In this document: one piece after another, positions 7,684-56,580 of the stretch
Layout of the letters: every line of letters begins with the position of its first letter
How positions within the stretch are numbered: position 1 is the first letter of the stretch
Origin: Terriglobia bacterium
GTDB lineage: Bacteria; Acidobacteriota; Terriglobia; Acidiferrales; UBA7541
Assembly: GCA_963695545.1 (NCBI GenBank)
Contig: OY968796.1
Span: 1,088,001 to 1,152,000 of the forward strand
Direction: 5' to 3'
Length of the DNA stretch: 64,000 nt
Made by a program: the position numbers and the translations under genes
Notes under the pieces: model-generated
The model's input: the letters and a program-made list of their open reading frames with translations, nothing else
What the model was told of the DNA's origin: nothing
The model's database searches: none

Positions 7684-8358
7684 TCACCAACCGTACTCGC
7701 CGACCAGCGGCACGAATCGGCAATAATAAAGCGCCACCGACCGCAATTCCCCGGCGACTTTCCGCCCACACATCAACTGCTGTTCATTTGTGCCGCCGAC
7801 CGGCACGATGATCCTGCCGCCCTCGGCCAATTGCTCGATCAGAGGTGGCGGAATCTCCGGCGCCGCGGCCGCCACCAGAATCGCGTCAAACGGCGCAAGG
7901 TCCGGCAATCCCAAAGTGCCATCGCCCGCGTGCACGTGAACGTTGTCGTAGCCGCCGAGCCGCGCCAGTCGCTCGCGCGCGGCAAGCGCCAAGCCCGCGC
8001 GGCTCTCGATCGTGTAAACCTCGCGCGCCAATCGCCCGAGCACCGCCGCCTGATAACCAGACCCCGTGCCCACTTCCAGGACGCGCTCGCAGCCCATGAG
8101 TTCGAGCGCCTCACTCATCGAAGCCACCATGTACGGTTGTGAGATTGTCTGCCCTTCCCCAATCGGCAGCGGCGCGTCGTCATAAGCCCGGGCCCAATAT
8201 TGTTCGGTCACAAATTCGTGCCGCGGCACAACCAGCATCGCCTCCAGCACCCGCTCGGACCGAATTTTCCGCCCGCGTAGTTGCCGACTGACCATTTCCT
8301 CGCGCTTTTCGCGCCGCGCCTCGGCCAGCGTTTCCGGTGTCTCGGGAAGATGATGCAT
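7684..8358 (-). CDS. pcm: Protein-L-isoaspartate O-methyltransferase
   Basis: VPRHEF, GQTISQPYMVA, VLEVGTGSGYQAA and APFDAILV motifs; TATAAT 6 nt before the ATG at 8358. Confidence 0.93.
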   Translation of the reverse strand: MHHLPETPETLAEARREKREEMVSRQLRGRKIRSERVLEAMLVVPRHEFVTEQYWARAYDDAPLPIGEGQTISQPYMVASMSEALELMGCERVLEVGTGSGYQAAVLGRLAREVYTIESRAGLALAARERLARLGGYDNVHVHAGDGTLGLPDLAPFDAILVAAAAPEIPPPLIEQLAEGGRIIVPVGGTNEQQLMCGRKVAGELRSVALYYCRFVPLVGEYGW

Positions 8359-8395
8359 CGAGCGATTATAGCTGCTCACGCTAGTTGACAATATG

Positions 8396-8734
8396 TACCC
8401 CCCCTCCCCCCGGGTGTTTTTTGGAAGTGTTGATTCTGAACGACTTTAAGTCCTTTGCGCCAGAACTGGTGATTCTAATGGGGTTAAAATGCCGTTTTTC
8501 AGAACTGGTCATTCTAAAAGAGTTGGGACGCGAAAATGGCAAAAATGGCCGAATTTGAGTCAAGGAAGCGCCGCGCGACGAGCATGGATGAGACGGGGAA
8601 TGCTCGCGCGGGCGATTTCGTGGGGCGGGGCAGGTTGCCGAAACATTCAGCCGCGAGGGTATGTGGCTGCGATTCATTCCTTATGATAGCATGATGGTAA
8701 TTTCTATGTCAATGTTATTCATCGGCTATTCGAA
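8396..8734 (-). repeat. Dispersed promoter-bearing element, copy A (candidate ncRNA or mobile-element end)
   Basis: Minus strand: TTCGAATA (8734-8727), TTGACA (8712-8707), 18 nt ending TGC, TATCAT, 5 nt, ATG 8677; three motifs at 39-bp period; ends ACCCGGGGGG. Same layout at 34.4 and 55.2 kb. Confidence 0.7.
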
Positions 8735-8815
8735 TGGCTGTGGAAATTATTTCGAATGGGACGGCTATGCCGAAAACATCCTTCACAAATCTCGCGCTTA
8801 AGGATGCGCTGCCGT

Positions 8816-9244
8816 TCAATCGACGCGGAGAGCCTGAGCTATCGCCGGCAAGGCGTCAGAGAAATCGCGGTAGCCGTGGGTACGCCTGCTTGTCAATTCA
8901 ATTTGCCACTTGAAGCAATCGTAGTGAATCCGCCGCTGCCACGCCTCCATGTTGGGGTATTCCTGGGCGACTGCGCGAGCCGTGTCGACGTAGGCGTCGA
9001 GCATTCCAAATTTCCCCCTGGCTCTACCGCGCAGCATTTTCTTATGCAAAACGCGCCCCCTAAACGTGCCAAGCGATTCCGAGGTGGCTTTACCGCCGCT
9101 AGTCGTTGGCGCCGTTATCCTATCCAGAGAAGGAATCGTGAGTTCCGGTTCAACGTGGGGTTGGGTCGACCGCAGCTCGTGACTGGCCCAAACTGTTTCA
9201 TTCGCGATTGCAGTGATCAGAAGAAGTGGCAAGGTGGCTTTCAT
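8816..9244 (-). CDS. Hypothetical protein
   Basis: 142-aa ATG ORF co-oriented with and just downstream of the XRE gene; no recognisable family. Confidence 0.4.
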   Translation of the reverse strand: MKATLPLLLITAIANETVWASHELRSTQPHVEPELTIPSLDRITAPTTSGGKATSESLGTFRGRVLHKKMLRGRARGKFGMLDAYVDTARAVAQEYPNMEAWQRRIHYDCFKWQIELTSRRTHGYRDFSDALPAIAQALRVD

Positions 9245-9286
9245 TGTGTTGGGCTTTGGCTTGCAGCCTAGGATGGGATTGAGTGG

Positions 9287-9619
9287 TCACGCCGCGCTCA
9301 CAACTCGCATGCGTCCAGACCGCCGCGAGCGGGGCGCGGTCCTTACGACAATTTCGACATCGCGGCCGAGAAGGGTTAAAAAGTGCATCAGTCTTCCAGT
9401 GGAGAAACCAGAGAAGTGGCCCCGCAGAAGCCGTGATATTTTCGGTTGGTCGATCTTCAAGATGCGCGCCGCGTGAGCTTGAGTAAGGCGGCGCGCACGG
9501 ATCGCCTCACCGATGCGAAAGGCGAGGCCCGCCTTAGCGATGTGTTCTTCAGGGTTTGGCAGCCCGATGTCGGCGAAAATATTTCCGCTGCTCTCTTCCA
9601 CTTCGATCACCTTGCTCAT
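9287..9619 (-). CDS. XRE/HigA-like helix-turn-helix protein (orphan antitoxin type)
   Basis: EESSGNIFADIGLPNPEE...LTQAHAARILKIDQPKISRLLRG...LGRDVEIVV; AGGAG SD upstream. Confidence 0.9.
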   Translation of the reverse strand: MSKVIEVEESSGNIFADIGLPNPEEHIAKAGLAFRIGEAIRARRLTQAHAARILKIDQPKISRLLRGHFSGFSTGRLMHFLTLLGRDVEIVVRTAPRSRRSGRMRVVSAA

Positions 9620-31520: not shown

Positions 31521-32069
31521 ATGCGGGTCGTCGAGAAGACGCAGTTGATGTCTGCGACGGAGATTGACCGCACCCTCCAACGGGTAGCTCACGAAATTGT
31601 CGAGCGCAGCGGTGGCACTGCGCATTTGGCGCTGATTGGAGTGCGCCGGCGCGGCGTGCCGCTCGCGCAACGCATTGCGCGAGCGATGCGCGCGATTGAC
31701 GGCGTGGATGTGCCCGTCGGCACGCTGGACATCACTTTATATCGCGACGATCTCTCGATGGTCGCGGCGCAGCCCGTTTTGCAATCAAGCGAAATCCCGT
31801 TCTCCGTCGACGGCAAAGATTTGATTCTGGTGGACGACGTGCTGTACACCGGCCGCACGATCCGCGCCGCAATGAATGGCCTGTTTGATCTCGGGCGGCC
31901 GAGCCGCGTGCGCCTGTGCGTGCTGATCGATCGCGGCCACCGCGAGATGCCGATCGAAGCGGCGTTTATCGGGCGCACAGTACAAACCAGCGACATGGAA
32001 ATTATCGAAGTGCGCCTGAATGAAATCGACCAGGAAGAGCGCGTGATGCTGGTCGAGCGCGTTCCTTGA
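31521..32069 (+). CDS. pyrR: PyrR regulator / uracil phosphoribosyltransferase
   Basis: LDITLYRDDL, LVDDVLYTGRTIRAA and DRGHREMPI. Confidence 0.96.
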   Translation: MRVVEKTQLMSATEIDRTLQRVAHEIVERSGGTAHLALIGVRRRGVPLAQRIARAMRAIDGVDVPVGTLDITLYRDDLSMVAAQPVLQSSEIPFSVDGKDLILVDDVLYTGRTIRAAMNGLFDLGRPSRVRLCVLIDRGHREMPIEAAFIGRTVQTSDMEIIEVRLNEIDQEERVMLVERVP

Positions 32070-33082
32070 TTCACCCGGAGACATCTGCTGCCGCCGAAGC
32101 GCGGATCGCTCCCGAAGAGATCGTGCCTTTTCGGTTCAACGACTTCCTGGCCATCGAGCCGCTTCACGCGGACGAAATCACTTTTCTTCTGGACCAAGCC
32201 AAACCCTTCCAGGAAATTCAGCGCCATCCGTTGAAAAAATTGGCGACGCTGCGCGGAAAAACGGTGGGCATCGCGTTTTTCGAGGCGTCCACGCGCACGC
32301 GCATCAGTTTCTCAACAGCCGCGGCTCGGCTCGGCGCCGATACCATGCAGTTGCAGGCGGAATCGTCGAGCCTGCAAAAGGGCGAATCGCTGCTCGATAC
32401 CGTGCGCACGCTGGATGCGATGAAGCCGGATTGCATCGTGATGCGCCACCGCTCGTCGGGCGCGGCGGAATTCGTCGCGCGGCACCTTGAAATTCCCGTG
32501 CTCAACGCCGGCGACGGCACGCACGAACATCCCACGCAAGCGCTGCTCGACGCGCTGACGATTCGCGATCGGCTCGGACGCCTGGACGGATGGAACGTTT
32601 CGATCATCGGCGACATTTTGCACAGCCGCGTGGCGCGCTCGAACATTCATCTGCTTTCAAAATTCGGTTGCCGCATCACGCTCTGCGGGCCGCCGATGTG
32701 GGTGCCTCCGGAAATGGAACGCATCACCGGCGGCGAGCCGGTGCGGCGCGTGGCGCGCGTGGAAGAAGCGCTCGACGGCGCGGACATCGTCCACGTGCTG
32801 CGCGTGCAGCAGGAGCGGCTGCACGAACCGAAGCTGCCGCTCGACGAATACGTGATGCTCTATCAACTCACGCCCGATCGCCTGCGTCTGGCGCGGCCCG
32901 GCGCGCTCGTGCTGCATCCGGGGCCGATGATTCGCGGCCTTGAAATCGATCCGGCCGTGGCCGATGGGCCGCAATCGTGCGTGCTCGAACAAGTGACCAA
33001 CGGTCTGGCCGTGCGCATGGCGCTGCTGTTCCTGCTGATCGGCCACGGCGGCGAAGAATCTCCCGCGAAGGACTCGATCTAA
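32066..33082 (+). CDS. pyrB: Aspartate carbamoyltransferase catalytic subunit
   Basis: FFEASTRTRISF, NAGDGTHEHPTQALLD, GDILHSRVARSN and HPGPMIRG. Confidence 0.96.
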   Translation: MIHPETSAAAEARIAPEEIVPFRFNDFLAIEPLHADEITFLLDQAKPFQEIQRHPLKKLATLRGKTVGIAFFEASTRTRISFSTAAARLGADTMQLQAESSSLQKGESLLDTVRTLDAMKPDCIVMRHRSSGAAEFVARHLEIPVLNAGDGTHEHPTQALLDALTIRDRLGRLDGWNVSIIGDILHSRVARSNIHLLSKFGCRITLCGPPMWVPPEMERITGGEPVRRVARVEEALDGADIVHVLRVQQERLHEPKLPLDEYVMLYQLTPDRLRLARPGALVLHPGPMIRGLEIDPAVADGPQSCVLEQVTNGLAVRMALLFLLIGHGGEESPAKDSI

Positions 33083-34355
33083 ATGTTGCTGATCAAGGCC
33101 GGGCACCTGCTCGATCCGGCCAGCAGGACCGATGCCCCCCGCGACATCCTCCTCGATGGCGACCGCATCGTCGCTGTCGAAGCGCCCGGAACGATTGGCG
33201 CGCGCAACGGTGACGTGCAACTGCTTGACGTTGCCGGCCTGATCGTGGCGCCGGGATTTATCGACCTGCACTGCCATCTGCGCGAGCCCGGCGGCGAAAG
33301 TTCCGAGACCATCGAAACTGGTACGCGCGCCGCGGCGCGCGGCGGCTTTACGGCCGTCTGCCCGATGCCCAACACGCGGCCGGTAACGACAACGCATCGG
33401 TGACGCGCTCGATTCTCGAACGCGCACAATCCGCGCACACGCGCGTGTGGCCGATCGGCGCGGCGTCGGCGGGCAGCCAAGGCGAGGCGCTTGCGGAAAT
33501 CGCGGCGATGCAAAAAGCGGGCGTAGTCGCCGTGTCCGACGACGGGCATCCGATCGCGACGGCGAAACTTTTGCGGCAGGTGATGGATTATTGCCGCTCG
33601 CTCGGCATGCCCGTGATCGATCACTGCGAGGACAGTCCGCTTGCTGCGGGCGCCGTCCATGCGCGAAGGGCCGGCGTCGATCCGCACTGGCGTGCGCGGC
33701 ATGCCTGCGGCCGCGGAATCCATCGGCGTGGGGCGCGACATCCAGATCGCCGAACTCACCGGTTGCCGCTTTCACATGGCGCATCTTTCGGCGCGCGCGT
33801 CGCTCGAGATGGTGCGCATCGCAAAGCACAAGCGCTTGGCGGTGTCCTGCGAAGTCACGCCGCATCATTTCACGATGATCGACGAAGAGGTCGGCTACGA
33901 TACGCAATCGCAAAATGAATCCGCCGCTCGGATCGCGCGAGGATCGCGACGCGCTGATCGAAGGATTGGCCGACGGAACCGTGGACGCCATCGCCACCGA
34001 CCACGCCCCGCACGAGCCGGCCACGAAAGAAGTGGAATTCGACCGCGCGCCATTCGGCATCACGGGGTTTGAAACCGCGCTGGGTCTCGCGCTCGAGCTC
34101 GTGCACGCAAAGAAACTCGGTCTTGGGCGCATGGTCGAGCTCTTCACCGTGGGCCCCGCGCATGTTCTGGGAATGCGTCGCCAAGTCTCCGCCGGCGAGC
34201 CAGCCGATCTGACGGTTTTTTCGACCGAGCATCGCTGGACGTTTCGCGCCGCCGAATCCGCCAGCAAATCGCGCAACACTCCCTTCGATGGCCGCGAATT
34301 CCGCGGCGGCCCCATGGCCACGATCGTCGCCGGGCGCGTCGTATATCGGCGATAA
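33083..34355 (+). pseudogene. pyrC: Dihydroorotase split by three single-base indels (pseudogene or assembly error)
   Basis: PGFIDLHCHLREPG, DHCED, CEVTPHHF and KMNPPL...IATDHAPH lie in four successive reading segments; shifts near 33385, 33658 and 33905. Confidence 0.88.
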
Positions 34356-34429
34356 TTCTGCAGCGCCCCAGCCGCATGACTCTTTTTGACGACGGCTAAA
34401 CTCTGTCTTATCAATGCGACGATTTGGGG

Positions 34430-34757
34430 GGTACACACCCCCGGGTATGTTTTGCGTAAGAGTGGCAAACACAGGGCTTGCAGCAAAAGAGTGACAAAGA
34501 GTGCGCAATTGATTGAGCGGGATAGACTTGCGCGCGTTTATTTTCAATGAGTTGCGCACTCTTTTGAAAGAATGTGTATGGGTCTGAAAATTAAGGGGTT
34601 CTTGGGGCGTGACAAAATGGACGCGGACGGATGATGAGGATGGGGTGCACGCAGGGGGAAAAGTCGGGGCAGTGGACGATTCGAATTGATCTCGGGCGAA
34701 CATTCAGAAGCGTCGCATATATTCAAACACATGTCAAGTATTAATTGAGTATTCGAA
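34430..34757 (-). repeat. Dispersed promoter-bearing element, copy B
   Basis: TTCGAATA (34757-34750), TTGACA (34737-34732), 17 nt ending TGC, GACGCT, 5 nt, ATG 34703; 13-bp inverted repeat at 34496-34508 / 34552-34564; ends ACCCGGGGG. Confidence 0.7.
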
Positions 34758-34815
34758 ATAATATCCGCAGGGCAAGCGCAACGTCGCGGAATGGACGATC
34801 GCGCTTCTTATGAGG

Positions 34816-35528: not shown

Positions 35529-36515
35529 TTACCCCGCTTGGTCCGAGCGCTTGTTTGAGAGTTCCTCTGCCTCGGAAATGGTTTTGGCAACGAACAACGT
35601 ATCCAACATGCACCACGAGCGCCGATTTCTCTGTATTCTCGGCCCCGTTCTTATTGTCCTGGCCGGTGAAAACGCGGGGCCCAGCTTGTAAAGGAAATGA
35701 GGCCCCCATTCGGCGTTGTTCGGAATCTCGGCGAACTTGTCGTGCGGGTTGAGGAAAATGTCATAGCCTTCAATGTGATGAATGGACTGAAGCTTTCCGT
35801 GATACCGGAAAGCCACGTAGTTCGGAGGTTCTTTAGGCCAAGTTTTCCCTACCGGGTGAAAGTAGCGTCGTCTTTTCTTAACGATGTCGATCAAAGATAT
35901 TTTCCAGCCTTCAGGCGTGCCGCTGCCGAGCGAAACTACATACACCCAATTGGAATCAATGTTTTGCATAGTCATCAACCCCCGCAAATACGTGAGCAGT
36001 TCCCGCAAAATGCGCCTTTCCGCATGCGAGCAATCGGACTGCGCCTCGACTGCGAGCCGAGCCATCTGTTTCCAAGAAATTGGGTGAATCTCTACACCCG
36101 ATGTCTTTCGAGTTTCAAGATTGAGGAGGGCGAATTCACGACTGCATTCGCTCATCACCAGAATCCGCCTCGGCAACCCCTTGCTCGCACGGAAGGAGGG
36201 CCGCTGTGCATACGTCTTCAATTGTTTCTGGCTCGGCAAAGTCCAGCCCCGCTTCGCCTCGACGATTAGAAAAAACTTGCCCGGTGACTCAATCTCGATG
36301 TCTGTGATGCCCGCCTGCTTCTCATGCTGTTGAAGACGGATAACCACGTTGCTCAAATCGGGCGCTATTCCCAAGGCATAGTGAACGAAATTGCCCAGAA
36401 GGTGTGGTGACTGCGAGAGTGCCCAGGCTACGCTGTACGTGATGGCATTTTCGTGTTCGCCAAGGAGGCTGAAAACGCTCTTGACTGTTCTCTTGTGTAG
36501 AAGGAGTTCCGTCAT
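35529..36515 (-). CDS. PD-(D/E)XK superfamily nuclease with extra C-terminal domain
   Basis: HENAITYSVAW, ITDIEI...LIVEAKRG...QLKTY and ISWKQM restriction-like motifs; SD GAGG. Confidence 0.75.
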   Translation of the reverse strand: MTELLLHKRTVKSVFSLLGEHENAITYSVAWALSQSPHLLGNFVHYALGIAPDLSNVVIRLQQHEKQAGITDIEIESPGKFFLIVEAKRGWTLPSQKQLKTYAQRPSFRASKGLPRRILVMSECSREFALLNLETRKTSGVEIHPISWKQMARLAVEAQSDCSHAERRILRELLTYLRGLMTMQNIDSNWVYVVSLGSGTPEGWKISLIDIVKKRRRYFHPVGKTWPKEPPNYVAFRYHGKLQSIHHIEGYDIFLNPHDKFAEIPNNAEWGPHFLYKLGPAFSPARTIRTGPRIQRNRRSWCMLDTLFVAKTISEAEELSNKRSDQAG

Positions 36516-55107: not shown

Positions 55108-55203
55108 AAAGGACTTCTATCAAAATATTCTCTTTTCGAAAGACATCGCCGCCGTTCGAAGCGAACGAGGAACCAAGACCACGTCACTTTTCTACCCATT
55201 CTA

Positions 55204-55535
55204 TTCGAATAACTCATTCATTATCATTGACGTGCTGCTACTCTATATGCTAAACTCAGGTGTGCGCTGCGAACTGAAACTTTCGCCAAAGAACCTGCGG
55301 ACAACGCGCCGCGCCCCGCGCAACATTTGCGCATCAAGTGCGCATTCACGCGCAAAAAACGCCCCCGCAACTCCTTTCCTTTCAGGCTTATACGCACTCG
55401 TCCAAAAGAGTGCGCATCTCATTGAAAAAAAACGATATCAACACGCTTGTTTTCATACTCATCCGCACTCTTTCCCTGCAAATCCTTTGGTTACATCATT
55501 TTACATATTTGATACCGGGGGTGGATGGAGGGGCC
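55204..55535 (+). repeat. Dispersed promoter-bearing element, copy C
   Basis: TTCGAATA (55204), TTGACG (55227), 18 nt ending TGC, TAAACT, 5 nt, GTG 55262; 55359-55473 aligns without gaps to copy B; ends ACCGGGGG (55514). Confidence 0.7.
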
Positions 55536-55671: not shown

Positions 55672-56580
55672 ATGAGCAAACTTCGCGTCTCCGTCGTCGA
55701 GTTCCTGAACACCGCGCCACTGGTTTGGGGTTTCACCGACGGCCCGCTCGAAGGCCGCTACGATCTTTCCTTTGCCGTGCCCTCGCGCTGCGCCGATGAC
55801 CTGCGCGCAGGCCGCGTGGATATCGGCGTGATCCCCGCGATCGAATATCAGCGCATCGACAATCTTGAAATTCTGCCCGGCATGGCCGTGGCCGCCCGCA
55901 ACGAAGTGCGCAGCATCCTGGTGGTCTCGAAGCGCCCCATCGACCGCGTCCGTCGCTTCGCTCTCGATCGCAATTCGCGCAGCTCCATCGCTCTCGTTCG
56001 CCTTTTGTGCCGCGGCCTTTGGGGAATCGATCCTGAATTTGTGCAAGCCGCGCCCGATCCCGCAGCCATGCTTGCCGAAGCTGACGCCGCCCTTTTGATC
56101 GGCGATCCCGCTCTGCGCGTGCGCATGAAAGTGGATGCCCTCGCCAGCAAAACGCCCGGCGCCGGAGGCTGCTGCGGAGGCCGGGACGACGAGCAGCCGG
56201 TTCCGGGTGTCGACATGCTCTTCGTCTACGATGTCGCCCAGCAGTGGCGCGAGATGACGGGTCGTCCCTGCGTTCTCGCCGTGTGGGCCGCGCGCCGCGG
56301 CGTCGTCACGCGCGCAGTTCTGGACGATTTCGAGGCCTCAAAGGCGTACGGCCTGGCGCACCTCGAGGACATCGCCGAAGGCGCCGCGCTCAAACTCGAT
56401 TTGCCGCCACGCGCGCTCGAATCCTACTTGCGCGAAAATATCGACTATTCGCTCGACGACGAAAATCTCGCCGGCCTCGATCTGTTTTATCGCCTGGCCG
56501 CCTCTGCGAAATTGATCCCCGACGAGCGCCCGATCGAATTCGCCGCCGCGCCAGCATCGATCGCGCGCGCCGCGCGCTAA
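55672..56580 (+). CDS. mqnA: Chorismate dehydratase (futalosine pathway)
   Basis: FLNTAPL, SRSSIAL, LLIGDPAL and WREMTGRPCVLAVWA; adjacent to mqnC. Confidence 0.9.
   Translation: MSKLRVSVVEFLNTAPLVWGFTDGPLEGRYDLSFAVPSRCADDLRAGRVDIGVIPAIEYQRIDNLEILPGMAVAARNEVRSILVVSKRPIDRVRRFALDRNSRSSIALVRLLCRGLWGIDPEFVQAAPDPAAMLAEADAALLIGDPALRVRMKVDALASKTPGAGGCCGGRDDEQPVPGVDMLFVYDVAQQWREMTGRPCVLAVWAARRGVVTRAVLDDFEASKAYGLAHLEDIAEGAALKLDLPPRALESYLRENIDYSLDDENLAGLDLFYRLAASAKLIPDERPIEFAAAPASIARAAR

Follow-up and report, generated by a model that had tools for sequence, protein, structure and literature searches.

Both leaderless translation and attenuation by Rho have been described in single operons, and dispersed repeats have mostly been treated as selfish or structural DNA. 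Here we describe a family of dispersed elements, three copies of which (A, B and C) lie in a stretch of 64,000 nucleotides from a Terriglobia bacterium (contig OY968796.1, positions 1,088,001 to 1,152,000; hereafter the window). Each copy carries one or more TTCGAA boxes, a promoter-like head, a start codon at a fixed distance from the -10 element, and a reading frame that stays open to a common end motif. We propose, as a reading that we consider about evenly poised between right and wrong, that these segments are dispersed cassettes of ~300–450 bp which supply a promoter and a translated leaderless leader, possibly Rho-sensitive, that is coupled to the downstream gene.

The closest described systems each share part of this arrangement. 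Mycobacteria have leaderless transcripts and small open reading frames (ORFs; PMC4633059), and leaderless short upstream ORFs (uORFs) encoding polycysteine have been described there as attenuators (10.1101/834739). As far as the accessible text of these reports goes, our elements resemble such uORFs in having an AUG or GUG at the predicted 5′ end, an unannotated ORF as the first cistron, and a proposed control of the following genes by translation. They differ in that the mycobacterial ORFs are short, belong to one operon each and sense particular codons, whereas the frames described here have 60–190 codons and no conserved residues, and each sits in a ~300–450-bp cassette that brings its own boxed promoter and is repeated ~80 times per genome. 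Putative mobile promoters, a form of promoter reuse in prokaryotes (PMC3575422), likewise consist of similar promoter sequences before unrelated genes, within a genome and among relatives. The present family meets this description, judged without the original similarity threshold; in the available portion of that work, however, mobile promoters are defined by upstream similarity alone, without a stop-free, leaderless, C-rich leader or a common 3′ module. The Mbox of M. tuberculosis, with its small upstream ORF, exemplifies Rho-dependent control via a leader ORF (PMC12810186), and is comparable in its C-rich, G-poor leader, its upstream ORF, the presence of a rho gene and the proposed dependence on translation; no ligand-sensing RNA was recognised here, whilst the dispersed, multicopy nature of the elements has no counterpart in the part of that report available to us. 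Within the same limits of the sources, neither leaderless attenuator uORFs nor mobile promoters bring the two ideas together in one family of repeats.

Correia elements of Neisseria, ERIC and the Rickettsia palindromic elements are intergenic and multicopy, being short palindromic units with inverted ends, some with promoter activity; the Rickettsia elements stay open when inserted in genes. Unlike these, the present family lacks terminal inverted repeats, has its own promoter-started frame and is 3–4 times longer. No published description of such an element was found in the open-access literature searched.

The genome under study (G000) is a single contig of 4.16 Mb and 60.6% G+C, a metagenome-assembled genome (MAG) of Acidoferrales type (Acidobacteriota) from soil. 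A first-pass annotation of the window had described three segments with ordered motifs and a fixed geometry, and had predicted many copies per genome. Every one of the motifs lies at its described place in A, B and C, but the segment limits first drawn were too narrow, since the element extends further 5′ (to the second box of copy A, Table 1). Scanning the whole genome with a profile of the promoter head (nhmmer) recovered further copies, at 96 places with E ≤ 1e-3, 82 with E < 1e-6 and 74 with E < 1e-8, with A, B and C as the window's only members; a regular expression for TTCGAATA followed after 10–17 nt by TTGAC matched the genome 61 times. The profile also recovered copies in relatives, and the family is abundant in the genus. 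The observation is confirmed as real and goes further than first stated: all three segments are members of one dispersed family that carries a boxed promoter.

A strict pattern for the element matched 53 times in G000 and 29, 20, 4 and 4 times in four further genomes of the same genus (the five others of the genus are denoted G001–G005). Three other genera of the family gave 3, 1 and 1 matches (G013 being one of the single matches), and the remaining 33 of the 41 genomes searched gave none; read backwards as a control, the pattern matched nothing in any genome searched, and the recurrence of the element in G000 far exceeds what chance would give. A scan of public MAGs, with one genome per species, yielded at least 85 loci with the element, and among the matches listed the titles are mostly Acidobacteriota, Terriglobia and Candidatus Acidiferrales or Acidoferrum. 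Typical heads were also seen on contigs of MAGs titled Methylomirabilota, Dormiibacterota and Alphaproteobacteria (loci L002, L020, L052, L080, L058 and L074), which may be mis-binned acidobacterial DNA. The public sequencing runs that matched positions 7700–9300 of the window were five soil-metagenome DNA runs from two studies, with no RNA run among them.

In an all-against-all comparison, the copies are homologous over a stretch that begins at about -70/-95 and reaches about +230/+400, counted from the ATG or GTG start codon. For the counts that follow, the 82 hits with E < 1e-6 were reduced to 76 that fit a regular expression for the promoter (copy B is among the six excluded), and then to 68 in which the end motif could be placed. 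Each copy has 1–3 TTCGAA boxes, a total of 72 boxes lying between -65 and -51 in the 76 copies; the palindrome TATTCGAATA is the form of the box in 31 of the 76, and a second or third box occurs in 56, at about -85 or about +15. A 10-nt motif is joined to the box in either orientation, as ATTTCCACAG in 18 of the 76 copies and inverted, as CTGTGGAAAT, in 19.

The consensus head reads TTGACA, 17–18 nt, TGnTAnnnT, which is a near-consensus promoter of the sigma-70 type with an extended -10 element. Genome-wide, TTGAC followed after 16–19 nt by TAnnnT and 4–8 nt later by RTG (ATG or GTG) occurs at 115 places, 79 of which are element copies, and the gap between TAnnnT and RTG is exactly 5 nt in 77 of these 79. 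ATG serves as the start codon in 46 of the 76 copies and GTG in the other 30; the nearest in-frame upstream stop lies a median of 11 codons before it, within the promoter. In Deinococcus, leaderless genes have a -10 element about 6–7 bp upstream of the ORF, according to the accessible part of one report (PMC12340547). The elements share with leaderless messenger RNAs (mRNAs) a -10 element only a few bases 5′ of the start codon, a likeness of geometry only. Because the RTG lies exactly 5 nt past the -10 element, transcription should start at or next to the start codon and give a leaderless mRNA; we infer from this spacing that the transcript begins with the start codon itself.

Downstream of the start codon, the first ~120 nt of the body are variable and barely alignable, yet uniformly C-rich and G-poor, whereas the second half shows nucleotide-level conservation and contains repeated short units and an inverted repeat. 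There are at least two forms of body: AAAGAGTGCGCA..CTCATTGAAAA..CGCACTCTTT was found in 42 of the 68 copies, three AGAATCAnCAnTTC units with AAAGGACTTAAAG in 13, and other or mixed bodies in the remaining 13. Whatever its form, the body closes with ..AAAACAYACC(C)GGGGG, and a short G/C hairpin frequently comes next; heads and bodies are combined as mosaics across the copies. On the opposite strand the end motif resembles a terminator (hairpin and T-run) in 18 of the 68 copies, for example at 34422–34446 of the window, and might there stop transcription entering the cassette from downstream. The 18 opposite-strand cases compare with 3 of the 68 copies for a hairpin with a T-run on the sense strand, and with 1–2 of 76 control segments.

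The decisive finding is the absence of stop codons from one frame. Between the start codon and the end motif, 65 of the 68 copies are stop-free in the frame of the start codon (frame 0), as against 5 in each of frames 1 and 2; summed over all 68 copies, the three frames contain 6, 156 and 189 stops, respectively. The antisense frames contain 194, 291 and 200, and the open frame therefore does not mirror a gene encoded on the other strand. The frame is 60–190 codons long across the copies. Past the end of the element, frame 0 meets its next stop somewhat later than the other frames (a median of 206 nt versus about 120). In a rough simulation of neutral change, 26% of copies would be stop-free at 20% divergence.

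The contrast recurs in copies from the public MAG loci listed. From this set, L010, L030, L037, L056 and L067, whose titles name unrelated phyla, were dropped, whilst those titled Methylomirabilota, Dormiibacterota and Alphaproteobacteria were kept. Among the resulting 79 copies, 60 are stop-free over the first 80 codons in frame 0 versus 8 and 6 in the other two frames, the total stops being 30, 199 and 209. Despite the shared descent of the copies, a contrast between frames of this size is too large for inherited chance.

An unlikely alternative is that these frames encode a large paralogous family of small leaderless proteins of 60–190 amino acids that are disordered and basic, evolve quickly and have many Ser, Pro and Arg residues, and that the protein is the product that matters. 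Such proteins would account for the openness of the frame and for its constancy in the type-I module (peptide ..SGAKDLKSFRINTSKKHPGG..), which is read in the same frame in 12 of 12 copies, and they would fit eight matches in a large protein collection, each annotated 'hypothetical protein' and sharing the conserved module only. However, the type-I module has a single frame without stops, so that stop avoidance alone explains its constancy. A conserved protein would also be expected to show an excess of changes at third codon positions, indels in multiples of three and the use of one frame. In 20 related pairs of copies the differences are instead spread evenly over the codon positions (270, 291 and 255), and 93 of the indels shift the frame as against 30 that are multiples of three, both partners still being open. 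Moreover, one nucleotide motif yields the peptide KRVRNSLK in one set of copies and QKSAHLIE in another, these being its two stop-free frames, which different subfamilies use. Base composition is flat over the codon positions, with G scarce at each of them (0.19, 0.16 and 0.19), and a Pfam search with the three frames of the window gave no family at E ≤ 1.

Nor do the leaders look like codon-sensing ones of the mycobacterial polycysteine or trp/his type, in which a short ORF holds a conserved series of regulatory codons; here no residue is conserved from one subfamily to another. Even substitutions, frameshifting indels and motifs read in alternate frames therefore speak against a conserved protein. 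That frame 0 is translated is inferred from stop avoidance. On the pattern of change in these sequences, selection appears to act on translation not stopping and, separately, on the nucleotides of the second half of the body, and not on the peptide.

Genes and their starts were called with a home-made procedure based on codon log-odds, and by this rough caller 56 of 74 copies are followed by a gene in the same orientation. Pfam families (E ≤ 1e-5) were assigned to 53 of 68 co-oriented downstream ORFs, and co-oriented genes with such support follow 53 of the 76 copies. They include SecA, RelA/SpoT, NAD-dependent DNA ligase (ligA), EPSP synthase, isocitrate dehydrogenase (icd), phosphoglycerate mutase, LpxD, FabH, ThiI, MoaA, MqnA, Pcm, proteases, glycoside hydrolases and others; the families being many and unrelated, no single pathway emerges.

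In the 58 copies usable for this comparison, the leader stop overlaps the gene start as ATGA in 8 for frame 0, 2 for frame 1 and 3 for frame 2, lies within 20 nt of the gene start in 15, 8 and 8, and is absent, the leader continuing in frame into the gene, in 14, 9 and 6. The ATGA overlaps occur at the mqnA-like gene (copy C), secA, two hydrolases, a fucosidase and others.

Rho loads on C-rich, G-poor and poorly structured RNA, and translation shields such RNA. The C–G skew over +20..+140 has a median of 0.30 in the elements and exceeds 0.15 in 95% of copies; in the controls, namely the initial 120 nt of ordinary genes and gene-upstream regions, the medians are 0.01 and 0.00, with 15% above 0.15. 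A rho gene is present (Rho_RNA_bind, E 2.8e-35, in an open frame of 448 amino acids). A C-rich, G-poor RNA before a gene in a genome that has rho is what a Rho-dependent attenuator would look like at the level of sequence.

These features are consistent with the following mechanism for the proposed leader cassettes. A putative regulator at the TTCGAA boxes would set promoter activity; ribosomes would load on the 5′-terminal start codon and translate through the leader, and this translation would keep Rho off the C-rich RNA. Translating ribosomes would then be delivered to the start of the downstream gene, either through a leader stop that overlaps the start as ATGA or through a leader that continues in frame into the gene. 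In this way, ~50 or more unrelated genes would need one promoter type and leaderless translation for their expression.

Several observations weigh against this proposal. The copies are related by descent, so that counts across them overstate independence. Eighteen of 74 copies, including B, face the 3′ end of a convergent gene, yet are stop-free, and a pure model of a promoter for the next gene does not explain stop-free copies that have no co-oriented gene. The -10 element of copy B (GACGCT) is poor and was not called by the promoter scan. The frame-0 excess at gene starts is modest (8 versus 2–3 overlaps; 15 versus 8 and 8 nearby stops) and depends on home-made start calls. Several downstream genes have a Shine–Dalgarno-like sequence of their own, and coupling is therefore not required for them; in G001, the leader before mqnA is out of frame and overlaps the gene. 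Finally, the conserved inverted repeat and the terminator-like end on the opposite strand have no role in the model, which also leaves the conserved second half of the body unexplained.

A considerably broader picture is conceivable, and is offered only tentatively as one that probably reaches too far. A transposase-less, self-propagated cassette may have been domesticated by Acidoferrales-type acidobacteria, with ~2% of genes (among them secA, relA/spoT, ligA and icd) placed under one operator-controlled consensus promoter and a long leaderless leader of no fixed sequence but obligatorily translated, which would act as a genome-wide sensor of translation capacity. Failure of 70S or leaderless initiation would lead to Rho termination in the leader, and success to transcription and ribosome hand-over, the whole constituting a global attenuation regulon that senses translation and is made from a repeat family.

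The history of the family was followed by scanning orthologous loci in G001–G005 with the head profile. A co-oriented head lies upstream of the mqnA-like gene (that of copy C) in G001, G002 and G003 and is absent in G004, G005 having no match to the gene at E ≤ 1e-20; upstream of relA it is present in the same three genomes and absent in G005, with too little upstream DNA in G004; and upstream of icd it is again present in these three and absent in G004, with too little upstream DNA in G005. For ligA a co-oriented head was found in G003 and in none of the other four. No head was found upstream of secA in G001, G003 or G004 (G002 has too little upstream DNA, and G005 no match at E ≤ 1e-30), nor, in any of the five genomes, upstream of pcm (copy A) or beside the neighbour gene of copy B. 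At the mqnA orthologues the promoter is recognisably the same and the bodies are of different types; the G000 leader stops at an ATGA overlap, and in G002 and G003 the leader and MqnA form one continuous frame.

Within the genome no near-identical copies were found: the two most similar copies are 87% identical over 542 nt, and the best match of a copy has a median identity of 81% over about 210 nt. Differing presence at orthologous loci, shared positions and the lack of near-identical copies together argue that the family was gained and lost at single loci and is mostly old and retained; the cassette is, as these comparisons suggest, an old one, maintained by selection. A comparison of filled and empty loci thus revealed gain and loss within the genus, but not a precise empty site. 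Neither such a site nor a target duplication could be defined for A, B or C against G001–G005, because the DNA upstream of these copies does not align with the five genomes, which also places all three copies at synteny breaks.

It is quite unlikely, on this evidence, that the family is a non-autonomous mobile element, either MITE-like (a miniature inverted-repeat transposable element) or served by a recombinase in trans, with an outward promoter and with the TTCGAAT/ATTTCCACAG unit and the CCGGGGG hairpin as ends on which the enzyme would act. The many dispersed copies would suit an element of this kind, as would the varying presence at orthologous loci (none at pcm or secA in the relatives examined, and at ligA only in G003), the occurrence of the left-end unit in both orientations and the mosaic of heads and bodies. 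A MITE has terminal inverted repeats and target-site duplications; no inverted repeats join the ends of A or C, and B has one 11-nt pair that is not shared with A and C, whilst no target-site duplications were seen on inspection by eye. Recent movement would be expected to leave near-identical copies and insertion polymorphism; the best pair of copies has the 87% identity given above, and presence does differ between species at orthologous loci. In addition, the relA, icd and mqnA positions are common to several species, and selection on the frame of each copy suggests a function for the host.

No transposase adjoins A, B or C as far as their surroundings were looked at, as the first-pass annotation had stated, and the only one among the 68 downstream ORFs examined is an ordinary IS1595-family ORF. 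This ORF (locus L108, G000:C1:246628-247554, minus strand; DDE_Tnp_IS1595, E 1e-31) lies directly 3′ of one copy, whose head is at ~247989. The copies do not resemble integron attC sites or cassettes, being single, chromosome-wide and without palindromic partner ends, although no search was aimed at an integrase. The idea, raised at first, of the end of a recombination or gene-capture system is not borne out by single copies before unrelated genes, by divergence of this order, by the lack of terminal inverted repeats or by the conservation of some positions.

The other initial suggestion, a multicopy regulated non-coding RNA (ncRNA) of ~260 nt in which the start codon and frame are incidental and the inverted repeats form the functional structure, is very unlikely. 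Conservation of the second half at the nucleotide level, inverted repeat arms of 10–21 nt, a strong promoter of its own and copies such as B with no co-oriented gene downstream are what one might expect of such an RNA, and the initial statement that the segments belong to no named RNA family was correct: a search of the whole window against Rfam gave no matches at gathering thresholds, with only chance-level ones (E > 1) at 8300–8800. A search of the window for transfer RNA (tRNA) and transfer-messenger RNA (tmRNA) was also negative. However, stop avoidance in one frame is inexplicable for an untranslated RNA, and neither a family match nor a structure supported by covariation was found. The fold z-scores of the whole transcripts of A, B and C are unremarkable (-1.41, -1.21 and -1.44), and RNAalifold gave no consensus structure for 42 type-II bodies. 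A 10-bp stem, AAAGAGTGCG/CGCACTCTTT, is near-invariant over 42 copies, with one compensatory change and several that break pairing, by manual pair counts. The scarcity of sense-strand hairpins with a T-run likewise argues against a discrete transcript of this length. The inverted repeat is real, but a role at the level of RNA rather than DNA is not supported by these sequences.

Most improbable of all is a non-stop leaderless mRNA that ends at the 3′ hairpin and engages tmRNA rescue or sequesters ribosomes: the lack of stops before the CCGGGGG end, the GC hairpin found there in many copies and the only somewhat later stops of frame 0 beyond it would agree with this, whereas 65 of the 68 copies have no sense-strand T-run after the hairpin, downstream genes show the co-orientation bias and the excess of ATGA overlaps described above, and positions upstream of essential genes are conserved.

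The proposed promoter and leader cassettes can be followed in detail in the three copies of the window (Table 1).

Table 1. Features of copies A, B and C and of the genes that follow them, numbered from the first nucleotide of the window
Feature	Position	Strand	Basis
Copy A, distal TTCGAA box joined to ATTTCCACAG, 19-nt composite, left end of element	8738..8756	-	read in sequence
Copy A, proximal TTCGAATA box, ~55 nt upstream of start codon	8727..8734	-	read in sequence
Copy A, promoter: TTGACA (8712-8707), 18-nt spacer ending TGC, TATCAT (8688-8683)	8683..8712	-	promoter scan 11/12, TG present
Copy A, predicted leaderless frame, ATG 8677 to TAG 8383-8381, 98 codons	8381..8677	-	ATG 5 nt past -10
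Copy A, end motif ACCCGGGGGG-A-GGGGGGG (ACCCGGGGGG at 8415-8406)	8398..8415	-	read in sequence
Gene 3′ of copy A, protein-L-isoaspartate O-methyltransferase (pcm)	7684..8379	-	Pfam PCMT, E 1.5e-62 (L120)
Copy B, CTGCGGATAT + TTCGAATA, composite unit in inverted orientation (TTCGAATA at 34757-34750)	34750..34770	-	read in sequence
Copy B, TTGACA (34737-34732), 17 nt ending TGC, GACGCT (34714-34709)	34709..34737	-	promoter scan: no call
Copy B, open frame of 277 codons starting at ATG 34703	33870..34703	-	sequence; ATG 5 nt past -10
Copy B, inverted repeat AAAGAGTGCGCAA..TTGCGCACTCTTT, 21-nt arms, 90% complementary, 27 nt between	34496..34564	-	repeat search and centroid fold
Copy B, end motif ACCCGGGGG (34446-34438) with hairpin GGGGGT-GTGT-ACCCCC	34425..34446	-	terminator-like on + strand
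Copy C, palindromic box TATTCGAATA	55202..55211	+	read in sequence
Copy C, promoter: TTGACG (55227-55232), 18 nt with TGC, TAAACT (55251-55256)	55227..55256	+	promoter scan 9/12, TG present
Copy C, predicted leaderless frame, GTG 55262 to TGA 55673-55675, 137 codons	55262..55675	+	GTG 5 nt past -10
Copy C, inverted repeat AAAGAGTGCG..CGCACTCTTT, 30-nt arms, 73% complementary	55405..55473	+	repeat search and fold
Copy C, end motif ACCGGGGG	55514..55521	+	read in sequence
Gene 3′ of copy C, MqnA-like menaquinone (futalosine-route) biosynthesis protein	55672..56580	+	Pfam VitK2_biosynth, E 2.1e-51 (L121)

Aligned with MAFFT, B and C are clearly similar, and beyond head, tail and architecture A has little in common with them; the distance from the start codon to the CCGGGG motif is 263 nt in A, 260 nt in B and 253 nt in C. 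The frame of copy A spans the C-rich variable leader, three AGAAT..TTC units (~8518–8424) and the end motif, and the predicted GTG start of the pcm gene lies 1 nt past the leader stop codon. In copy C, the TGA of the leader overlaps the ATG of the next gene (ATGA). Its body contains a unit of ~32 nt in three direct copies (55368–55399, 55439–55470 and 55479–55510), the second and third being 72% and 63% identical to the first; the array of motifs noted here is thus built by internal reiteration of one unit.

The frame of copy B contains a second TTCGAAT (34685–34679) and runs antisense into a convergent amidohydrolase-like gene. This amidohydrolase/dihydroorotase-like gene (33083–34355, plus strand) follows a pyrB-like gene (32066–33082) and is split across at least three reading frames, Pfam Amidohydro_1 matching with its N-terminal part on 33083–33400 and its C-terminal part on 33915–34352, with no match between; the gene is either a pseudogene or broken by frameshifts that assembly errors introduced. 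Should indel errors be frequent in the assembly, counts based on frames elsewhere could be slightly affected. A same-strand ORF of 609 amino acids was considered as the downstream gene of copy B; it has no Pfam family, the amidohydrolase pieces lie opposite it, and the convergent reading was kept. The ORFs upstream of A (8816–9244, minus strand, 142 amino acids) and of B (35529–36515, minus strand, 328 amino acids) likewise gave no Pfam family.

Taken as proposed, dozens of unrelated genes, some of them essential, draw their promoter, a start codon and a long translated leader from one repeat family, and the sole constraint to be seen on that leader is for translation not to stop. This signature can be counted and is unusually clean, pointing to selection on the act of translation and not on its product, and it touches core genes. 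For annotation, the consequence is that such frames are missed or called hypothetical proteins, and that in-frame read-through wrongly lengthens the downstream genes. Together, these features suggest an undescribed way of wiring gene expression. If the mechanism is true, the family would offer a natural system for leaderless initiation in regulation, and would show how a regulon can be built by the spread of a cassette and how core genes are controlled in an abundant, uncultured soil lineage.

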